A DNA stretch of 64,000 nucleotides from Chloroflexi bacterium 13_1_40CM_65_17 (GCA_001917815.1 MNES01000084.1:12825-76824), one strand, 5' to 3'. Counted from the stretch's first letter, positions 474 to 62,014 are shown. Numbers and translations: made by a program. Notes: generated by a model from the letters alone, not told the origin.

Positions 474-1002
474 CCAGCGCTCTCGACGCCGGGTTCGTGA
501 ATACGTACTTCTGACGCTGGGCGTGCTCACGCCCATCGGCATTCTGGCGGTCAACGCGTCCGCCTTCGTCATGGTCCACCTCGACGCCTTCCGGCTCATA
601 ATTGCCGGCCTTGCCCTCCTGAGCGGGTTGGTCCTCAACGGCTTGACCGCCTGGTGGCTGCTCCGCCTGGCCAGCCTCCACGCCCCGCCGCTGTTCCGCG
701 AGTACCGGACCTGGGCGATCGGGGCTGCGGTCTTGATCGTCGCGCTGACCGCCGCCGGAGGCGGGTACCTCACCTATCTGGGCATGCGGGACCCGCGCCA
801 TCTGCCAGATTCCCTGTCGGTGGTCGTGGCCGCCTTCATGCTCCTGCTGCCCTTCGCGGTGACCTTCGCCGGCCGGCGCATGGCCGGGCTCGGTGGGATC
901 ATCCCTGTCGACGAACCGACCCCACGGGACAAGCCACACCGGACCTCCCCATCCCGCCGCCCGCTGCGCGGGGGGCCGACTTCCCCGCAAGCGGGGAAGT
1001 AA
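436..1002 (+). CDS. hypothetical membrane protein (about four hydrophobic helices, Pro/Arg-rich tail)
   Basis: 188-aa ORF with G/C-rich third codon positions and four long hydrophobic stretches. Overlaps erpA by 38 nt, so the start is uncertain. The last ~18 codons are the antisense of the repeat copy at 944-999. Confidence 0.5.
   Translation: MQAEPKPAAAGTNQRSRRRVREYVLLTLGVLTPIGILAVNASAFVMVHLDAFRLIIAGLALLSGLVLNGLTAWWLLRLASLHAPPLFREYRTWAIGAAVLIVALTAAGGGYLTYLGMRDPRHLPDSLSVVVAAFMLLLPFAVTFAGRRMAGLGGIIPVDEPTPRDKPHRTSPSRRPLRGGPTSPQAGK
944..999 (-). repeat. composite SD/anti-SD palindromic repeat, copy B (variant arms)
   Basis: Minus-strand reading: CTTCCCCGC-TT-GCGGGGAAG / TCGGCCC / CCCGC-GCA-GCGGG / CGGCGG / GATGGGGAGG. 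Same three-part architecture as the other six copies. Confidence 0.7.
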
Positions 1003-1030
1003 AAAAAGAGCCCCTCGAACCGAGGGGCTC
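1001..1030 (-). terminator. intrinsic terminator downstream of groEL
   Basis: Minus-strand GAGCCCCTCG-GTT-CGAGGGGCTC (10-bp GC-rich stem) followed by TTTTTTT. Confidence 0.85.
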
Positions 1031-1052
1031 TCCACCGCCGAGCCTGAGCGGG

Positions 1053-1096
1053 TCTCCCCACCCGGCCTTCGGCCACCCTCCCCGCGAGCGGGGAGG
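1053..1096 (-). repeat. composite SD/anti-SD palindromic repeat, copy A (groEL 3' UTR)
   Basis: Minus-strand reading: CCTCCCCGC-TC-GCGGGGAGG / GT / GGCC-GAA-GGCC / GG / GTGGGGAGA. Begins 13 nt after the groEL stop. Confidence 0.8.
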
Positions 1097-3147: not shown

Positions 3148-3176
3148 TAGTACTACCGCCGGGCCGGCGGGGTTAA
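3147..3176 (-). promoter_or_regulatory. putative groESL promoter
   Basis: Minus strand TTAACC-N18-TACTAT immediately upstream of CIRCE. Motif match only. Confidence 0.35.
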
Positions 3177-3400
3177 ACCTGGCTCGACTCGGCGGCCTGG
3201 ATGAGCTGTCGGGCCTGGTCCGCCTCGGCGTCGGGGACCATGATCCTGGCCTCGGTGAAGTTCATCGCCGCGGAGTAGGCGGTGTCGCCGAACACCTCGG
3301 TGGTGATTCCATTCGCTTCCAGGACAGCCGCGATGAGGTCGGCCTTGAGCCGCTCGCCCCGGAAGACCACCTCCCAGCCCGTGACTCCCATCAATCCCAT
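3173..3400 (-). CDS. small DUF2007-like protein (putative signal-transducing protein fold)
   Basis: 75-aa ORF. Pattern W.VVFRG...A.LIAAVLEANGI...V resembles DUF2007. An alternative ATG at 3391 overlaps the tsaD stop (TGATG). Confidence 0.55.
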   Translation of the reverse strand: MGLMGVTGWEVVFRGERLKADLIAAVLEANGITTEVFGDTAYSAAMNFTEARIMVPDAEADQARQLIQAAESSQV

Positions 3401-4419
3401 CCTAGAGAGGGATCCACCTGCGTTGAGGAGTGCGACTCCCCACCCGCGCTTCGCGCGGCCTCCACGCGACGTGGGGAGGCGAAATAGCCGGCGGCGGCGA
3501 TCATGGCCGCGTTGTCGGTGCAGAGCTCGAGCGGCGGTATCGTTAGCCGCGCCCGGCCCGCCACCACCTCGGCCGCGCGCCTGCGAAGGAGAGAGTTGGC
3601 GGCAACCCCACCCGCGACGACAACATCGGACACCGGTGATCTGGATAGAGCCACATCCAGCTTCTCGAGCAGCGACTCCACCACCGACTGCTCGAAGGCG
3701 GCAGCCAGATCCGCCTTTTCCTGCGGGCCGGCAGAGTCGCCGAGATCCCTAAGCCGATAGAGCAGCGCGGTCTTCAGCCCGCTGAAGCTGTACTCGAGCC
3801 CCGGCAGATGTGGCCTCGGCAGAAGCTGGCGGCGCGGGTCGCCCGTCCTTGCCAGACCGTCGAGCGCCGGACCGCCGGGGTAGCCCAGGCCCAGCATGCG
3901 GGCGGCCTTGTCGAAGGCCTCGCCGGCCGCGTCGTCGCGGGTTCGGCCGATGACCTCGAACCGGCCGTGCTCCGGCATACGGACCAGGTCGGAATGGGCG
4001 CCGCTCACCACGAGTCCCAACAAGGGCGGCTCGAGCTCAGGGCGAGTCAGAATCGCGGCATAGATGTGTCCCCACAGGTGGTTGACCCCGGTGACCGGCC
4101 TCGACCATGACGCGCCAAGACCCTCCGCGACGCCGACCCCGACCAGGAGGCAGCCCGCGAGGCCAGGGCCGCGCGTGACGGCGATCAGGTCCACGTCATC
4201 CGGGCCAAGGCCTGAGCCCTCGAACGCGAGGTCGAGCAGATGTGGCAGGCGTTCGAGGTGGTCGCGAGCCGCGAGCTCGGGAACGACTCCGCCGAAGTCC
4301 TTGTGCAGCTCGATCTGCGAGTGGATGACGTTGGCCAGAACCCTCCGGCCGCCCTCTACCAGGGCGACCGACGTCTCGTCGCAGCTGGTTTCGATTCCGA
4401 GGACGAGGGCCGCTTTTAC
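3391..4419 (-). CDS. tsaD: tRNA N6-adenosine threonylcarbamoyltransferase TsaD
   Basis: Conserved N-terminus ALVLGIETSCDETSVALVE lies upstream of the track start (4194). The frame is open to 4491 but contains no ATG, GTG or TTG. The 5' end is placed at the GTA codon overlapping the rimI stop. Confidence 0.85.
   Translation of the reverse strand, partial: VKAALVLGIETSCDETSVALVEGGRRVLANVIHSQIELHKDFGGVVPELAARDHLERLPHLLDLAFEGSGLGPDDVDLIAVTRGPGLAGCLLVGVGVAEGLGASWSRPVTGVNHLWGHIYAAILTRPELEPPLLGLVVSGAHSDLVRMPEHGRFEVIGRTRDDAAGEAFDKAARMLGLGYPGGPALDGLARTGDPRRQLLPRPHLPGLEYSFSGLKTALLYRLRDLGDSAGPQEKADLAAAFEQSVVESLLEKLDVALSRSPVSDVVVAGGVAANSLLRRRAAEVVAGRARLTIPPLELCTDNAAMIAAAGYFASPRRVEAARSAGGESHSSTQVDPSLGWD
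3436..3479 (-). repeat. composite SD/anti-SD repeat, degenerate copy C inside the tsaD 3' end
   Basis: Minus-strand reading: CCTCCCCAC-GTCGC-GTGGAGG / CC / GCGC-GAA-GCGC / GG / GTGGGGAG. Read in frame as ASPRRVEAARSAGGE. Confidence 0.5.
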
Positions 4420-25989: not shown

Positions 25990-26781
25990 TCAGCGGGCGG
26001 CGCCGTTGGCCCTGCCGTTGGAGCCGTTCGGGGACCTCAGTGCTGTGAGAATCAAAGGCCCTTTGTCCGTGATCGCCACCGTGTGCTCGAAGTAAGCCGA
26101 AAGTCCGCCGTCGACAGTACAGATCGTCCAGCCGTCCGGCTTCATGTAAACCTCGTGCGAGCCGGCGTTGACCATCGGCTCGATGGCCAGGGTCATCCCC
26201 GGCTTGAGGCGGGGCGGCGTGCCCGGGCTGCCGAAGTTGGGCACCTGGGGGTCTTCGTGCATCTGGCGTCCGATCCCGTGGCCGACGAACTGGCGGATCA
26301 CCGAGAAGCCCGCCTTCTCGACGTGCCTCTGGATCGCCGAGGAGATGTCCCCGAGGTACCCACCCGGCTGCGCCTTGTCGATGCCCACGTAGAGCGCCTC
26401 TTCGGTGACCTTGATCAGCCGGTCGGCCTCTTTGCTGATCTTGCCCACGCCCACCGTGATCCCGACGTCGGCCCAGAAACCCTCGAGCACCAGACCCAGG
26501 TCCAGGCTCACGACGTCGCCCGCTGCGACTTTGCGATTGCCCGGGATCCCGTGCACCGCCTCGTCATTGATGGACACGCAGATCGACTTGGGGAACCCGT
26601 GATAGCCCAGGAAGCCGGGGGTTGCGCCGCCGGCCCTGATGAGCTTGTCTGCGATCCGATCCAGCTCGTCAGTGCGAACGCCCGGCTTGCAGGCCTCCTT
26701 CAGGGGAGGCAGCACCGACGCGAGCAGCCCACCCGCACGGGCCATGAGGTCGATCTCGTGTGCGGTCTTCAGGTTGATCAT
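25990..26781 (-). CDS. map: type I methionyl aminopeptidase
   Basis: 263 aa with HGIPG, DVGI.VGG, GHGIG and FEHTV metal-ligand motifs. Confidence 0.93.
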   Translation of the reverse strand: MINLKTAHEIDLMARAGGLLASVLPPLKEACKPGVRTDELDRIADKLIRAGGATPGFLGYHGFPKSICVSINDEAVHGIPGNRKVAAGDVVSLDLGLVLEGFWADVGITVGVGKISKEADRLIKVTEEALYVGIDKAQPGGYLGDISSAIQRHVEKAGFSVIRQFVGHGIGRQMHEDPQVPNFGSPGTPPRLKPGMTLAIEPMVNAGSHEVYMKPDGWTICTVDGGLSAYFEHTVAITDKGPLILTALRSPNGSNGRANGAAR

Positions 26782-27437
26782 GGCAAAAAACTCATTGAAT
26801 TAAAGCGACCATTCTCGCCGATCGCGTTAAGAACGCGTCCGGTTATCTCATCGATTGTCCCCCGTCCGTCGATCTCGGAAACAATGCCTGTGCCCCGGTA
26901 GTGCTCGAGGACGGGAACGGTCTTGGACAGATAGATCTCGATTCGGGGCTTCACGGCCTCGACGTTGTCGTCTTCGCGCTGGACGAGCGCGGTGCCGTCG
27001 GCCGCGCAAGCAGTCGTTCCAGGCGGATACGTTCGCTGGCAGGCCGGGCAGACCAGCCTCCCCGACAGCCGCTCGAGCAGCTCGGCCATCTCGACCTTGA
27101 GGTAGAGCACGCGGTCGAGGCTTCGCCCTAGCTCGCCCATCAGGACGTCGAGCGCCTCCGCCTGAGGAACCGTTCGCGGGAACCCGTCGATGATGAACCC
27201 GCCTCCGGCATCGGGCTTGTGGAGCCGGTTCCGGATCATGCCGATCATGATGTCGTCGGGGACGTACTGGCCTTTGGCCAGGATCGGTTGGGCCTGACGG
27301 CCGAGGGGCGTGCCCGCCTGGATCTCCGCGCGCAGCATGTCGCCGGTGGCTATGTGCGGGATCCCGAAGCGCGAGCGAAGCATGTTCGCCTGCGTGCCCT
27401 TGCCGCTGCCGGGCGCGCCATACAGAAGCAGGTTCAC
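26778..27437 (-). CDS. adk: adenylate kinase
   Basis: GAPGSGKGTQ P-loop and a Cys-containing LID (CPACQRTY). GTG start 7 nt after GGGGAGG. Confidence 0.95.
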   Translation of the reverse strand: MNLLLYGAPGSGKGTQANMLRSRFGIPHIATGDMLRAEIQAGTPLGRQAQPILAKGQYVPDDIMIGMIRNRLHKPDAGGGFIIDGFPRTVPQAEALDVLMGELGRSLDRVLYLKVEMAELLERLSGRLVCPACQRTYPPGTTACAADGTALVQREDDNVEAVKPRIEIYLSKTVPVLEHYRGTGIVSEIDGRGTIDEITGRVLNAIGENGRFNSMSFLP

Positions 27438-27444
27438 GGTTGGG

Positions 27445-27504
27445 CCTCCCCACCCGGCCGGACTCGCTGCGCGAGTCGGGCCACCCTCCCCACGAGTGGG
27501 GAGG
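27445..27504 (-). repeat. composite SD/anti-SD palindromic repeat, copy D (secY-adk spacer; distal arm is the adk SD)
   Basis: Minus-strand reading: CCTCCCCAC-TC-GTGGGGAGG / GTGGCCC / GACTCGC-GCA-GCGAGTC / CGGCCGG / GTGGGGAGG, then CCCAACC and GTG (adk). Confidence 0.85.
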
Positions 27505-27507
27505 TCA

Positions 27508-28839
27508 TCAACGGATAAAGCCGCGGTACTGGCGCATGACGAGCTGCGTCTGCAGCTGTTTCATGGTGTCCAGAGCGACGCCGACGACGATCAGGATCGC
27601 CGTCCCGCCCAGGTACATCTGCTGGTGGGGGATGCCCGAGATCTTGGCCGTGGCGACGGGCAGGATCACGGTGATGAAGCCGAGGAAGGTGGCGCCGGCG
27701 AAGGTGACCCGGTTCATGACCGCCGCCAGGTAGTCCGCGGTGGGACGCCCGGGACGGATTCCGGGGATGAAGCTCGAGTAGCGCTTGAGGTTGTCGGCGA
27801 CGTCGTTCACCTCGAACGTGATCGCGGTGTAGAAGTAGGTGAAGCCGAAAGTGAGGATGAAATAGAGCGCGTTGTAGGTCACGGCCATCGGGACGTTGGC
27901 GGTGTCGGGCGTGAAGTTGCCCCGTATCCACGAAGCCGCCTTGTAGTACCAGGTGTCGACCGGGGCGCCCTGGAAGTAGTTGGAGACGATGGTCGGTAAG
28001 AACATCACCGAGATCGCGAAGATGATCGGGATCACGCCCGCGTGGTTCACACGCAGCGGCAGGAAGCTGGCGCGGCTCTGTACCTGCTTGAGGCCGACAG
28101 TGCGCTGCGCCGACTGGATGGGAATCTTCCGCACCGCCTGCTGGACCTCGATGATGACCGCGGTCATGACGAGCGCGATGATCCCGAAGAGGATGAAGGG
28201 CACGTAGTCGGCCAGTCCGCCGCCTGTGGAGTGGGCGGTGAACACGGAGGCGATGCCCTGCGGCCCCCGGCCGATGATGCCGGCGAAGATGATCAGCGAG
28301 ACGCCGTTGCCGATGCCGTACTCGGTGATCAGCTCACCGAACCACATCAGCATCACGGTGCCGGCGGTGAGGACGACGACGATCTCCAGGCGCTGGAACC
28401 AATCGAGCGGGGGCAGGATGGCCGGGCTCGTGTTCTGGAACAGCACCGTGAAGCCATATGCCTGGCCGGCGCCCAGCGCGACTGTGAGGTAGCGGCTCCA
28501 ACGCTGAATGCGGCGCCGACCCGCTTCACCCTCCTTCTGGATCTCCTTGATGCGCTCGGAGATCACCGTCATCAGCTGCATGATGATCGTCGCGTTGATG
28601 TACGGGTTCATGCCCATGGCCACGACGCTGAAGCGCGACAGTCCACCGCCCGAGAACAGGTCGAGCAGTCCAAGGAGCGCCTGGGAGTTGAAGAGCTGTG
28701 CGAGCGCGGCCTGGCTCGCACCCGGCACCGCGACGTTGGCAAAGAGCCTGAAGATGACCAGGATCCCGCCCGTGAAGAGGATCTTGTTCCGCAGCTCGGG
28801 CAGCCGGATGGCGTTGACCAGGGCCTCGAGCAGGTTCAT
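27508..28839 (-). CDS. secY: preprotein translocase subunit SecY
   Basis: 443 aa, 10-TM pattern, in the rplO-secY-adk context. Confidence 0.96.
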   Translation of the reverse strand: MNLLEALVNAIRLPELRNKILFTGGILVIFRLFANVAVPGASQAALAQLFNSQALLGLLDLFSGGGLSRFSVVAMGMNPYINATIIMQLMTVISERIKEIQKEGEAGRRRIQRWSRYLTVALGAGQAYGFTVLFQNTSPAILPPLDWFQRLEIVVVLTAGTVMLMWFGELITEYGIGNGVSLIIFAGIIGRGPQGIASVFTAHSTGGGLADYVPFILFGIIALVMTAVIIEVQQAVRKIPIQSAQRTVGLKQVQSRASFLPLRVNHAGVIPIIFAISVMFLPTIVSNYFQGAPVDTWYYKAASWIRGNFTPDTANVPMAVTYNALYFILTFGFTYFYTAITFEVNDVADNLKRYSSFIPGIRPGRPTADYLAAVMNRVTFAGATFLGFITVILPVATAKISGIPHQQMYLGGTAILIVVGVALDTMKQLQTQLVMRQYRGFIR

Positions 28840-28842
28840 AGG

Positions 28843-29463
28843 CTATTCCTCGGTTGTAGGTCTGCTTTGCTCGGTCTTGGGTTCCTCGGAACCCCCCACC
28901 TGTCGGGCCCGCTTCGCGGGCGCGACTTCCTCCCCACTTCGTGGGGAGGTTTCTGGTTCCTCGGCCTTGGGCGTTCGTTTTGCGGTCTTGGCCGCCAGTC
29001 GCTTCGGGCCGATCTTCCGAGGCTCTCCGATCACCTTGACGGAGCCGCCGCGCGCCTCGATCGCCTCGCGCGCGCTCGAGCTGAAAGCGTGTGCCTCCAC
29101 TGTGAGCTTGCGGTCGAGGGATCCGGTGCCGAGGACTTTGACCTCGAAGCCGGCGCGCACAAGGCCGGCCTCCGCGAGCGAGGCGGCATCGACCTTGGCT
29201 CCGTCGGGGAACCGGCTGAGCTTCGAGATGTTCACCACCGAGTAGATCTTCTTGAACGGATTCTTGAAACCCGGCAGCTTGGGTATGCGCTGCGACAGCG
29301 GCATCTGTCCACCTTCGAACCCCGGGCGGAAGCCTTCGCTGCGCGCGTTCTGTCCTTTCTGTCCGCGCCCTGATGTCTTGCCGCGGCCCGAGCCGGTGCC
29401 GCGGCCGATGCGCCGGGCCTTGCGGTGCGCGCCCGCGGCGGGTTTCAGGTCGTGGAGCTGCAT
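28843..29463 (-). CDS. rplO: 50S ribosomal protein L15 with ~55-aa C-terminal extension
   Basis: MQLHDLKPAAGAHRKARRIGRGTGSGRGKTSGRG... 206 aa, noticeably longer than the uL15 proteins I recall. Confidence 0.93.
   Translation of the reverse strand: MQLHDLKPAAGAHRKARRIGRGTGSGRGKTSGRGQKGQNARSEGFRPGFEGGQMPLSQRIPKLPGFKNPFKKIYSVVNISKLSRFPDGAKVDAASLAEAGLVRAGFEVKVLGTGSLDRKLTVEAHAFSSSAREAIEARGGSVKVIGEPRKIGPKRLAAKTAKRTPKAEEPETSPRSGEEVAPAKRARQVGGSEEPKTEQSRPTTEE
28892..28949 (-). repeat. composite SD/anti-SD repeat, copy E, in frame inside the rplO extension
   Basis: Minus-strand reading: CCTCCCCAC-GAA-GTGGGGAGG / AAGTCGC / GCCCGC-GAA-GCGGGC / CCGACAG / GTGGGGGG. Translated as TSPRSGEEVAPAKRARQVGG. Confidence 0.8.
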
Positions 29464-33649: not shown

Positions 33650-33999
33650 CAAGACGGCTCCTCGGTCTTCGCCTTGCGGGCGCGCTTCGGCTTGGGAACC
33701 TCGATCACTGGGGCGTCAGGCTCGAATCCCTCATCCACCGCCTTCGCGGGTTGTGCCTCCCTACCCGGCGCTTGCGCGTCGGCCTCCCCACGGGGTGGGG
33801 AGGTGACGATCCCCAGCTCGCGTTCGCTCAGCACCGTCATGATCCGGGCGATGTCGTGGCGCACCTTGGAAATCTGGCTCGAGTTCTCGAGCTGGCCGAC
33901 CGCGTGCTTGAAGCGGAGCTCGTAGAGCTCACGCCGCGCCGCGCGCATGCGGTCCTCCAGCTGGTCCTCCTCTAGCTCCCTCAGCTCGTCGACCTTCAT
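33649..33999 (-). CDS. rpmC: 50S ribosomal protein L29 with ~50-aa C-terminal extension
   Basis: [39 protein letters not shown] core. 116 aa, noticeably longer than the uL29 proteins I recall. Confidence 0.9.
33757..33803 (-). repeat. composite SD/anti-SD repeat, copy F, in frame inside the rpmC extension
   Basis: Minus-strand reading: CCTCCCCAC-CCC-GTGGGGAGG / CCGAC / GCGC-AA-GCGC / CGG / GTAGGGAGG. Translated as [16 protein letters not shown]. Confidence 0.8.
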
Positions 34000-55886: not shown

Positions 55887-56029
55887 CTATTCCGCCGAGT
55901 CTTCCCCGAGCTCTTCGCGCTCGAGGCTGATACCGAGGTCCAGCGGGATCTCGGGGATGTCGGAACCCCACGAAATCTGCGATTTCGCGGGGACCCCGTG
56001 TCTTATTGAATGCCGCGAAGAAGACATCT

Positions 56030-56033
<4 letters not shown>
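55887..56033 (-). CDS. 48-aa ORF coupled to rpoB that carries a duplicate of the RpoB C-terminal 24 residues
   Basis: ATG overlaps the rpoB TGA (GAATGA). Translation [48 protein letters not shown]. The 72-nt duplicate differs from rpoB at 10 sites, all synonymous. Confidence 0.65.
55966..55992 (-). repeat. 12-bp-arm hairpin inside the rpoB-rpoC spacer ORF (related to 37974-38000)
   Basis: Minus-strand RNA CCCCGCGAAAUC-GCA-GAUUUCGUGGGG, 12 bp including one G-U. The plus strand would carry an A-C mismatch. Confidence 0.7.
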
Positions 56034-59569
<3,536 letters not shown>

Positions 59570-59732: not shown

Positions 59733-59786
59733 CCTCCCCACACGTGGGGAGGTGGCTGCCGCCGCAGGCGCCAGCCGGTGGGGAGG
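59733..59786 (+). repeat. composite SD/anti-SD palindromic repeat, copy G (plus strand; distal arm is the SD of the aminotransferase gene)
   Basis: Plus-strand reading: CCTCCCCAC-AC-GTGGGGAGG / T / GGCTG-CCGCCGCAGGCGC-CAGCC / G / GTGGGGAGG, then 12 nt and the ATG at 59799. Confidence 0.85.
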
Positions 59787-59798
59787 TACGTTTAACCA

Positions 59799-60947
59799 AT
59801 GCCCGACTGGAAGGCCTTCCGCCACCAGTTCCCACTCCTCGACCGCTATATCTACCTGAACGCCTGTTCGCTCGGTCCTCTCCCCCGGCGCGGCCGGGCC
59901 GCCCTCGAGCGCTACGCCAACGATTGGGATACGAAGGGCACGCCGGTCTGGTACTCCGACTGGCTCCCGCTCCTGGAACGGCTCCGCACCCGGGTCGGCG
60001 CGCTGCTGAACGCGCCCCGGGGGTCGACGGCGATCGCGCCATCCGTGTCGGTTGCCCTCACGACGCTCGCCTCAGGCCTGCCGCTCCCGCCTGGTCGCAA
60101 CAAGGTCCTGATCGGCGAGCTCGACTTCCCCACGATCGGCCACCAGTGGCTGTCGCGCCCCGAATTCGAGGTCGAGTTCGTGCCCAGCGCCGACGGCATG
60201 ACCATCCCCCCGGAGGCTTTCGCCGAACGCATCGACCGGCGGACCGCCCTCGTGGCGACGACCCACCTCTTCTACACGACCGGCTACCTGCAGGACGTCC
60301 GGGCGATCGCGGACGCCGCCCACACGGCGGGCGCCCTCTGTCTCATCGACGGCTACCAGACCTGCGGCTGCGTGCCCATCGACGTGGACGCCATGGGTTG
60401 CGACGCCTTCGTCGGCGGGTGCCTCAAGTGGCTTTCCGGCGGTCCGGGCACCGCCTTCCTTTACGTGAGGCCGGAGCTGATCCCAGACGTCAGGCCTCAC
60501 GGAACCGGCTGGTTCGCCACCCGCGATCCGTTCTCGTTCACCCTGAGCGAGCTTGATTTCGCCGACGATGCCCGGCGGCTGGAGACCGGTACGTGGGCGA
60601 TGGCCTGCCACTACGCCGGCCTGGCCGGATTGGAGCTCATCCTCGAGGTCGGCGTCGAACACATCCAGGAGCGGCTGCGCGACCTCACCGATCGCATCTT
60701 GGAACGCTGCGAGGCCGCCGGGGTCAAAACTTTTACGCCCCGGGAGCGGGAGCGGCGCTGCGGGATCGTGACCCTCGAGTCGGCCCACCCCGAGGAAGTG
60801 GAGCAGGCTCTCCACAAGGCCGGCGTGATCGTCGATTCGCGACCACACCGCGTGCGCCTCTCACCTCATTGGTGCGTGACCGAATCCGAGCTCGAGCGCG
60901 GGATGGATATGGTCCTCGAGCAACTGGCCGCCGCGACGCTTACTTGA
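59799..60947 (+). CDS. class V (kynureninase/cysteine desulfurase-like) PLP-dependent aminotransferase
   Basis: 382 aa. [14 protein letters not shown] fits a PLP-lysine region of the kynureninase-like type. Confidence 0.75.
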
Positions 60948-61335
60948 TCTCGGCGGTCGCCCCTGCTTCCTTCAACCTCGCCACCGCCTTCTCCGCGTCC
61001 GCCTTGCTTACGTTCTCGAGCACGGGCTTCGGCGCGGCGTCGACCAGGTCCTTGGCCTCTTTCAGGCCGAGCTGGGTCAGCTCCCGGACGGCTTTGATCA
61101 CGTTGATCTTGCTCTCGCCCACCGCGGCCAGGTTGACCGTGAATTCGGTCTTTTCCTCTTCCGCGGCGCCGTCAGCCGAACCGCCCGCGGCGGGGGCGGC
61201 GGCCACCGCCGCGACTGGAGCCGCGGCCTTGATGCCGAACTCGTCTTCGATCGCCTTGACGGCCTCGACGACGTCGAGGATCGTCCAGTCCTTGAGCGCC
61301 TCTACGAAATCCTTCGGTGTGACCTTTGTTGCCAT
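60940..61335 (-). CDS. rplL: 50S ribosomal protein L7/L12
   Basis: Ala-rich hinge and C-terminal [23 protein letters not shown]. Confidence 0.96.
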
Positions 61336-61341
61336 CTCTAC

Positions 61342-61875
61342 CTACGCTGCCTCCAATTTCGATTTGTATGCGTTCAGCACCCCGATGAGCTGCTGAACAG
61401 GGGTTTGCATGATTCCGACGAGCTGCGCGACGGGCGATTGAAGCGTGCCCAGCAGCTGGGCGAGGAGAACTTCGCGGGACGGAAGATCCGCCAGCTGCTT
61501 GATCTGGTCGCGGTCGACGACCCGGCCCTCGACGAGACCGCCGACCACCTCGAGCTTCAGCCGGGTGGTCCGGACGAACTCGTTGATGAGCCGCGGCGGG
61601 AGGCTCATGTCTTCGTAGCCGAACGCAATCGCGACCGGGCCTTTGAGCTCGGACTCGAGCGCGGGATACCCGGCCGCGTCCGCAGCGCGCCGCGCGAGCG
61701 TGTTCTTCACCACGCGGTACTCGACATTCCCTGTCCGCAGCTTTCCCCGAAGGTCTTGCATCTGGCTGACGGTCAGCCCGCGGTAGTCGGTGAGCACGGC
61801 CACCTTCGCCTTCTTCAGCTTCTCCATCAGAAGCTCGACCTGCTCGGCTTTCTGTTCTTTCCCGGCCTTTGGCAA
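61342..61875 (-). CDS. rplJ: 50S ribosomal protein L10
   Basis: (L)PKAGKEQKAEQVELLMEKLKKAKVAVLTDYRGLTV. TTG at 61875 lies 8 nt after GGGAGGA. The track start is rejected. Confidence 0.92.
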   Translation of the reverse strand: MPKAGKEQKAEQVELLMEKLKKAKVAVLTDYRGLTVSQMQDLRGKLRTGNVEYRVVKNTLARRAADAAGYPALESELKGPVAIAFGYEDMSLPPRLINEFVRTTRLKLEVVGGLVEGRVVDRDQIKQLADLPSREVLLAQLLGTLQSPVAQLVGIMQTPVQQLIGVLNAYKSKLEAA

Positions 61876-62014
61876 AAAGAAAATCCTCCCTGCCCACACA
61901 GAGGCACGAAGGATCGGATGTCCTTCACTTCTGATCGCCTCGGTAGGAAATTAAGCCTGCCTTGCGACAGGGCACCTACGGTCTAGGGCAGGTCGCGAAT
62001 TATACGGAGTCGGC
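61876..62014 (-). promoter_or_regulatory. rplJ 5' leader with a perfect TATAAT box; possible L10 autoregulatory leader
   Basis: Minus strand TATAAT at 62004-61999, then a CCTGCC...GGCAGG stem. The position matches known L10 leaders, but no model was run. Confidence 0.3.

Follow-up and report, generated by a model that had tools for sequence, protein, structure and literature searches.

A short interspersed palindromic repeat of Candidatus Dormibacterota at the secY-adk junction: probably a recent insertion compatible with translational coupling

The element at positions 27445-27504 of a 64,000-nt stretch of DNA from Chloroflexi bacterium 13_1_40CM_65_17 (MNES01000084.1:12825-76824; here called the window), which lies in the junction between secY and adk, is one copy of a short interspersed palindromic repeat family that is abundant in Candidatus Dormibacterota, the phylum in which the repeat itself most likely places the organism of the window. 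We suggest that this copy is probably a recent insertion of the dispersed repeat, selfish or neutral and compatible with translational coupling, and not a regulator of adk. In our model, the ancestral secY-adk junction would have been an overlapping stop/start NTGA that was duplicated on insertion, such that the left copy would now serve as the secY stop and the right copy as the adk start. Ribosomes finishing secY would restart on a mini-open reading frame (mini-ORF) bridging the element and be delivered to the adk start, ahead of which the third arm of the element would additionally offer a GGAGG. In tightly coupled, highly expressed operons, only sense insertions of a length that leaves this stop-to-start frame open would persist, while elsewhere the element would be tolerated in frame in the C-terminal extensions of L15, L29 and TsaD and, in relatives, of Adk.

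Support for the idea of a dispersed family comes first from the window. An earlier note, made from the sequence of the window without database searches, had listed seven copies with a common layout, and their number, coordinates, strands and layout (Table 1) were all borne out by the sequence, by a covariance model and by shuffled controls. The model, R1, is based on an alignment (A2) of 61 related copies; with filters off it finds exactly seven copies in the window (42.8-69 bits, E <= 5e-10), its other matches of at least 12 bits being opposite-strand or partial ones that overlap the seven, and everything elsewhere scoring below 10 bits. The pattern of the proximal hairpin, P1, has five exact matches in the window against 0.00 expected from 100 dinucleotide shuffles. 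In the window copies, P1 consists of CCTCCCCRC, a loop of 2-5 nt and GYGGGGAGG; a variable GC hairpin, P2, follows with a GAA, GCA or AA-type loop; and the distal arm reads (C)CGG-GTGGGGAGG-like.

The family extends far beyond the window. A scan of GTDB with a composite pattern, taking a single genome for each species, returned at least 108 loci, most of them in metagenome-assembled genomes (MAGs) of Dormibacterota, including some with the older labels Chloroflexi CF_xx / UBA10874, and R1 identifies 234 non-overlapping copies in the window plus 1.49 Mb of fetched loci (cited here by L-numbers). Genes around the copies in the MAG loci were called with a simple codon-based program, which recovers the ribosomal genes of the window. 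Copies pile up at gene junctions, typically starting 3-30 nt past a stop codon, and the element is found at at least eight junctions other than secY-adk, in 3' untranslated regions (UTRs) and within the tails of coding regions; tandem arrays made up of the P1 hairpin only are present in L057, L059, L080 and L111. Another seven junctions, empty in the window, are occupied in some relatives, and presence or absence differs between close relatives at every junction; gain and loss of copies between close relatives are observed. The distance from arm 1 to arm 3 has no fixed residue modulo 3 (61:58:34 in 153 copies), which eliminates a coding repeat as an account of the family as a whole.

The earlier note had not recognized the element as a described family, and we come to the same view. 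A scan of the whole window at the Rfam 15 gathering thresholds has the L10 leader as its sole match and no family for the repeat, an E-value scan of 27380-27560 gives at best 16.6 bits against a threshold of 100, and literature searches on Dormibacterota repeats and with the arm sequences returned no description of the family; the papers listed for the arm sequences, searched in full text, include no bacterial repeat and are headed by papers on the c-MYC G-quadruplex. As far as these searches go, the family is a previously undescribed interspersed repeat of the REP/MIRU/RPE-like kind.

The family consensus can be written (T)TC(A/G)-CCTCCCCRC-N2-4-GYGGGGAGG-TC-GGC...stem...C-GNA-G...stem...GCC-GGGTGGGG(AG). 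P1 is constant at 9 bp, and the GGGTGGGG that follows P2 is nearly invariant and repeats the 3' arm of P1. The core measures ~45-60 nt (44-60 nt in the window) and reaches ~90 nt with subfamily-specific 3' tails, which include AGTCGCAC or ANNCGAGCTGGCAC; the commonest 5' flanks are TTCA (33), CTCG (22) and GTCA (11). On alignment A2, 96.7% of cells pair, compared with 44-56% after sliding of the partners. The four basal pairs of P2 all change on both sides, and position 8 of P1 covaries, with A-U in 101 copies, G-C in 40 and three exceptions. A second subfamily, represented by copy A in the window and found in relatives also at the L17-truA junction, has C to U at position 2 of arm 1, compensated by G to A in arm 2. 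Of 143 copies, 96 have a GNA triloop in P2 (GAA 49, GCA 42) and 128 have C-G as the closing pair, so that the usual apex is GCGNAGC, the extraordinarily stable 'mini-hairpin DNA' motif, whose stability needs its closing pair (PMC13037366, PMC3201870). Copy D, the copy at secY-adk, had been read as copy A (944-999) with a 17-nt hairpin in place of its GAA loop; the copy that actually looks like copy D but for a short GAA loop is the one at 1053-1096, with GGCC-GAA-GGCC.

The third arm had been described as Shine-Dalgarno (SD)-like, but the AGG that makes it so is not conserved across the family. All 46 copies that were not selected by pattern have GGTGGGG as the core of arm 3, and its T is never replaced by C, however arm 1 reads, whereas the last two bases, which create GGAGG, vary (GGGGAG in 19/46); conservation of the third arm across the family is limited to GGGTGGGG. 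Copy D does carry GGAGG at SD distance from the adk GTG, as had been claimed, and GGAGG, GAGG, GGAG or AGGA lies upstream of 44 of the 78 genes called in the window, such that canonical SD motifs are in use. Judged from sequence, this GGAGG is probably the adk SD in the lineage of the window; its presence ahead of the GTG is incidental to copy D. The proposed likeness of the flanks to the 3' end of 16S rRNA would follow from arm 1 being the complement of an SD-like sequence.

The same arms underlie the translational switch put forward in the earlier note, in which the single CCUCCCCAC arm would alternate between a proximal decoy and the distal SD arm and toggle adk translation on a signal. Both pairings are indeed possible: in forced-pairing folds of copies B, D, E and G the energies of the two states differ by 3-5 kcal/mol (copy D: P1 at -44.1 kcal/mol, the alternative at -40.7), the arm1:arm3 fold is the minimum-energy structure of copy G, and the substitutions seen in arm 1, A to G at position 8 and C to U at position 2, still allow wobble pairs with an unchanged arm 3. 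The position of the GGAGG of copy D also suits such a switch. However, the arm1:arm3 helix, although 91% pairable, has no compensatory change; its changes are one-sided only (A-U to G.U in 16 copies, U-A to U.G in 12) and its observed values equal the shuffled ones, whereas P1 covaries. Moreover, the SD core of arm 3 varies even at secY-adk, where relatives have GGGGCC, GGGGAT or GGGGAC; the element has no sensor domain; it is also found in 3' UTRs, in coding tails and in antisense orientation; and translation of the enclosing mini-ORF, if it takes place, would open both helices. Together with its absence from the orthologous junction in most relatives, these observations make a dedicated adk switch very unlikely.

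The two G-rich arms invite a second structural explanation, an exchange between hairpin and G-quadruplex, in which arms 2 and 3 (GGGGAGGGTGG ... GGGTGGGGAGG), similar to c-MYC Pu27, would form a quadruplex-duplex hybrid with P2 as a duplex loop when arm 1 is displaced. The c-MYC papers retrieved with the arm sequences point in this direction, as do the four tracts of at least three G in copy D, in copy B and in a Hyphomicrobiales version of the element. Yet only 8 of 144 copies have four such tracts with short loops, even with P2 allowed as a long loop, and the family consensus past arm 2 is GGAGGTCGGC; we regard this exchange as highly improbable.

Comparison of orthologous loci, which the earlier note had named as a check, shows that the secY-adk junction is polymorphic for insertions. 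From 80 fetched loci with Adk 77-100% identical we obtained 64 distinct junctions, of which 26 have an overlapping stop/start NTGA (e.g. ...CGgtgaac), nine a spacer of at most 20 nt, and 29 are filled by a spacer of 37-166 nt. The long spacers hold the repeat family, a second family, a third motif or unrelated sequence, and where the repeat is present its P2 is quite different from one group to the next (window type; L126/L134/L144; L141; L142/L151/L146; L137; L165; L170/L175; L189; L161). Most close relatives, with Adk 77-95% identical, are without the element, having the NTGA overlap or at most 20 nt, and L115 and L116 (Adk 95% identical) have the second family in its place. Within one tight clade with near-identical L15 tails, L142 contains the element, L138 the second family and L143 an empty overlapping site. 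The states of this junction in relatives therefore argue that the window copy is a lineage-specific insertion and not a conserved regulatory site.

The second repeat family lacks P2 and consists of a hairpin, CCCTCTCCCC-N3-4-GGGGAGAGGG, after which the 3' arm appears once more as a direct repeat (GTCAGGGAGAGGGG or TTGGGGAGAGGGG). It is present in the secY-adk spacers of L115/L116, L138/L139, L162, L177, L181, L169 and L188 and in the L17-truA spacers of L116, L159 and L186; it fills the same junctions as the first family, and its spacer length is likewise 1 mod 3. A third, unrelated palindromic insert, CCGGATAGTCCGGACTATCCGG, occurs twice in the secY-adk spacer of L156, L158 and L160; in these relatives secY ends in TAA and the spacer length is 2 mod 3. 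A short spacer, ...AAATAGCTCGatg, is shared by L117-L120, L123, L125, L129, L130, L133, L136, L140 and L150, with GCG instead of CTCG in L130. Among the 5' flanks of the element, the CTCG of this spacer ranks second in frequency, and we speculate that the short spacer might be the footprint of a lost element.

The borders and the length of the filled sites bear on translational coupling. In 25 of the 29 filled secY-adk sites NTGA stands on both borders, the left one keeping the secY TGA and the right one the adk NTG, and in 24 of the 29 the spacer is 1 mod 3 and the frame is open; with related spacers grouped by eye, ~17 of 21 spacer classes are 1 mod 3 (binomial p=1e-5). Because of this length, a frame can run from an NTG on the secY stop to a TGA on the adk start, and this is the arrangement of the mini-ORF that bridges copy D (Table 1). 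Since length across the family has no fixed residue modulo 3, the constraint on frame belongs to the junction and not to the element. Of 58 operon copies, 44 are within a frame that ends next to, or overlapping, the start codon of the following gene.

Copies within genes conform to this rule as well. Copies E, F and C, in L15, L29 and TsaD, share one frame (xCC-TCC-CCA, read as SP..GE), and each of these ORFs terminates at the following gene's start or overlaps it. In all relatives L15 and L29 have long low-complexity C-terminal tails, which hold the element zero, one or two times and always in frame; the L29 insert is at two different positions of the tail or absent, and decayed copies are discernible. 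The model-defined core of the copies at the L15 site (12 among those listed) is 45, 51 or 57 nt long, all multiples of 3, and that at the L29 site 43 or 46 nt. In L170, L175 and L184 the Adk ORF itself reads through a copy up to its ATGA overlap with map. In the window and L113-L192, L15 has 173-226 aa (where the gene was called whole) and L29 103-134 aa, their variable tails reaching the next start; S3 is also long, with 321 aa.

Orientation separates ribosomal operons from the rest of the genome. Co-orientation of the copies with the operon, claimed in the earlier note, holds in ribosomal loci, with 59 sense and 0 antisense copies over at least eight junctions, several of which have more than one type of insertion; it does not hold in the genome-wide sample, where copies between co-directional genes number 30 sense and 29 antisense. 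The latter count eliminates a general co-orientation with transcription, and mixed orientations inside single 8-kb loci (e.g. L081, L099, L101, L034) eliminate the replication strand as what sets orientation. We infer that the sense-only pattern reflects purifying selection in tightly coupled, highly expressed operons: a sense copy would present its unpaired G-rich arm at the downstream end and its frame can stay open, whereas an antisense copy would put P1 directly on the next ribosome-binding site.

The same pattern could also be expected of an adaptive intercistronic RNA module, in which P1 and P2 would act as stabilizer hairpins protecting the 3' end of the upstream message segment, recruited by the host for differential operon expression, and the G-rich arm as a ribosome-binding site or 5' stabilizer of the downstream segment, in the manner of STAB-SD. 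In E. coli, REP elements are known to stabilize mRNA, copies of the present family sit immediately past stop codons, GGGTGGGG is invariant, and the post-groEL copy is conserved in three MAG lineages, the position of copy B being filled also in two other MAGs (L065, L066). Against such a module stand the 30:29 orientation in other co-directional gene pairs, the variation in presence or absence at every junction between close relatives, and the many operon copies inside ORFs or mini-ORFs, whose hairpins would be unwound if these are translated. We consider it unlikely.

The favored explanation, insertion of a dispersed repeat that coupling tolerates, places the family beside several known systems. 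Mycobacterial interspersed repetitive units (MIRUs; Supply et al. 1997, via PMC12548453 and PMC3184786) are described as inserting at start codons with an internal ORF coupled at -4 spacing (PMC12548453) and as having tetranucleotide direct repeats at filled sites (PMC3184786). Both are units of 40-100 bp that lie between operon genes in the orientation of those genes, the Dormibacterota core having 44-60 nt and being 59:0 sense in ribosomal operons; in both the ends of an internal ORF overlap the flanking stop and start (-4, NTGA), which 24 of the 29 long secY-adk spacers fit; in both a tetranucleotide is repeated at filled sites (NTGA, 25/29) and relatives have empty sites (26 with a single NTGA); and tandem copies occur now and then in both. 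The Dormibacterota family differs in host phylum and motif, in being a strong palindrome with a repeated arm, in occurring also antisense, in 3' UTRs and as genome-wide singletons, and in a length that is free modulo 3 family-wide; the likeness is one of behavior, by description, and we claim no membership.

With REP/BIME/REPIN elements the family shares short GC-rich imperfect palindromes in many extragenic copies, positions past stop codons and within operons, and clusters, with hairpin-only arrays as well. Unlike them, it lacks the conserved 5' GTAG of REP, the flank being TTCA or CTCG, and the repeat is tripartite with a direct repeat of one arm. No RAYT is among the ten genes checked beside hairpin arrays. 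In-frame palindromic inserts tolerated as extra peptide recall the Rickettsia RPEs, which are summarized as such in PMC3184786 (Ogata et al. 2000), and correspond here to the C-terminal extensions of L15, L29, TsaD and Adk; however, RPEs are longer (~100-150 bp) and restricted to Rickettsia, while the Dormibacterota inserts are confined to C-terminal tails beside the start of the next gene. A resemblance to MITEs such as the Correia elements of Neisseria is possible: arms 1 and 3 form terminal inverted repeats of 8-9 bp, NTGA is duplicated in the flanks at one junction, and copies would be transcribed along with neighboring genes. The repeat is much smaller than typical MITEs, no parent insertion sequence with matching ends was found, and the target is a stop/start junction instead of TA.

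A bolder idea is that of a mobile cassette specialized for stop/start junctions, which would duplicate NTGA on insertion, bring its own open frame and a G-rich arm for ribosome contact so that coupling survives, pass through a single-stranded DNA stage and be moved by a putative enzyme that reads GCGNAGC and GGGTGGGG, as a system common to Dormibacterota and Hyphomicrobiales. The GCGNAGC apex hints, speculatively, at such a stage. The cassette as a whole seems to us rather doubtful. The ten genes checked beside hairpin arrays, in search of a mobilizing gene, are all housekeeping genes (FKBP, cyclophilin, cupredoxin, DksA etc.), and the ORFs between inverted copies in L073 look non-coding.

Several points weigh against insertion of a selfish or neutral repeat as the full account, that negative search for a mobilizing gene among them. 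Gain and loss would also fit recombination or gene conversion between copies, and the duplicated NTGA could mirror selection, both codons being needed for viability, instead of a target-site duplication. The mini-ORF is a candidate for translation with frame statistics as its sole basis; part of the 44/58 count is trivial, as adk and several other genes begin NTGA; the 59:0 ratio does not stand for 59 independent events but for at least eight junctions, several with more than one type of insertion; and gene context in the MAG loci comes from our own simple gene caller. Finally, a purely selfish repeat does not explain the near-invariance of GGGTGGGG, which, with the retention of the post-groEL copy across three MAG lineages, could indicate a sequence-specific function.

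Elements of the same architecture also occur outside Dormibacterota. Hyphomicrobiales MAGs (L042, L055, L077, L100, L105, L107) have several copies per locus at 35-56 bits, and these may either belong to a shared family or be convergent look-alikes. The three-part multi-copy layout, in these six and in L026, L021 and L088, thus in MAGs of Hyphomicrobiales, Xanthobacteraceae and Beijerinckiaceae, reads CCCTCCCCGC-GAAG-CGGGGAGGGTGG, a stem with a GNA loop, and CCGGGTGGGGAG; sphingomonads have a related form. High-scoring copies are also found in a Nitrosotalea bin (L014, L017, L059, L109), a Nitrosopolaris bin (L028, L041, L046, L089, L112) and an Eisenbacteria bin (L097, L103); the copies in these Thaumarchaeota- and Eisenbacteria-labeled SMAG bins are probably binning contamination.

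The window has ~65% GC, and its minus strand is a large cluster of translation and transcription genes: nusG and the genes for L11, L1, L10 and L7/L12; rpoB and rpoC; those for S12 and S7, fusA and tuf; the S10-spc-alpha operons including secY, adk and map; and, further on, tsaD and groES-groEL. The exact Adk protein of the window is also encoded on soil-metagenome contigs in ENA. A scan for tRNA and tmRNA found none in the window, and the L10 leader upstream of rplJ is its sole curated RNA family. A class-V aminotransferase/kynureninase-like gene on the opposite strand breaks up the usual rplKAJL-rpoBC arrangement, and a 73-nt direct repeat with 86% identity, whose two units occupy the rpoB-rpoC spacer and the rpoB 3' end, looks like a partial duplication of the C-terminal coding end of rpoB.

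Table 1 Features of the window, with positions counted from its first nucleotide
Feature	Position	Strand	Description
secY	27508-28839	-	
adk	26778-27437	-	
Copy D (type copy)	27445-27504	-	From sequence, RNA fold and R1 (67.5 bits)
secY stop TGA at copy D	27510-27508	-	
Second TGA at copy D	27507-27505	-	
Copy D arm 1	27504-27496	-	CCTCCCCAC
Copy D arm 2	27493-27485	-	GTGGGGAGG
Copy D P2 hairpin	27482-27456	-	12 bp with one C.C mismatch; GCA triloop 27470-27468
Copy D arm 3	27453-27445	-	GTGGGGAGG
GGAGG of copy D arm 3	27449-27445	-	7 nt upstream of adk GTG
Spacer between copy D and adk	27444-27438	-	7 nt
adk start GTG	27437-27435	-	
Bridging mini-ORF	27434-27511	-	(L)MTSPLVGRVARLAQRVRPGGEAQP, then stop; putatively translated, from frame statistics
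Mini-ORF start	27511-27509 or 27508-27506	-	TTG or ATG, respectively; overlaps secY TGA 27510-27508
Mini-ORF stop TGA	27436-27434	-	Overlaps adk GTG 27437-27435
Copy E	28892-28949	-	In frame in low-complexity C-terminal tail of ribosomal protein L15
L15 ORF	28843-29463	-	206 aa, peptide ...TSPRSGEEVAPAKRARQVGG...; stop 6 nt before secY ATG
Copy F	33757-33803	-	In frame in C-terminal tail of ribosomal protein L29
L29 ORF	33649-33999	-	116 aa; stop overlaps S17 start
Copy C	3436-3479	-	Imperfect P1; within ~30-aa C-terminal extension of TsaD ORF
TsaD ORF	3391-4194		Pfam domain ends at residue 233; ORF ends at start of DUF2007 gene (3173-3391)
Copy B	1053-1096	-	12 nt past groEL stop (groEL 1109-2734); minimal P2, GGCC-GAA-GGCC
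Terminator-like hairpin and T-run	1001-1032	-	GAGAGCCCCTCGGTTCGAGGGGCTCTTTTTTT; between copies B and A; read from sequence
Copy A	944-999	-	Subfamily CTTCCCCGC / GCGGGGAAG / GGATGGGG; downstream of groEL terminator-like hairpin
Copy G	59733-59786	+	Sole plus-strand copy; R1 match; in 5' leader of aminotransferase gene, arm 3 GGAGG 12 nt upstream of its ATG
Class-V aminotransferase/kynureninase-like gene	59799-60947	+	Between rplL (60940-61335) and rpoB (56030-59569)
L10 leader (RF00557)	61870-62006	-	51.4 bits
73-nt direct repeat, first unit	55889-55961		rpoB-rpoC spacer
73-nt direct repeat, second unit	56032-56104		rpoB 3' end

A three-arm motif that looks like SD and anti-SD before an essential gene resembles a riboregulator, and relatives reveal it as a dispersed repeat, which is a caution for readers of motifs. 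As far as the literature was searched, this is the first interspersed repeat family described for the uncultured phylum Dormibacterota, and it would provide a second, independent case outside mycobacteria of repeats that persist in operons via a bridging mini-ORF that preserves coupling. The copies could be used as markers for strain typing and for binning contamination. Finally, the tails of the ribosomal proteins L15 and L29 absorb palindromic inserts in frame, and these inserts account for the extended L15 and L29 proteins reported by gene callers.

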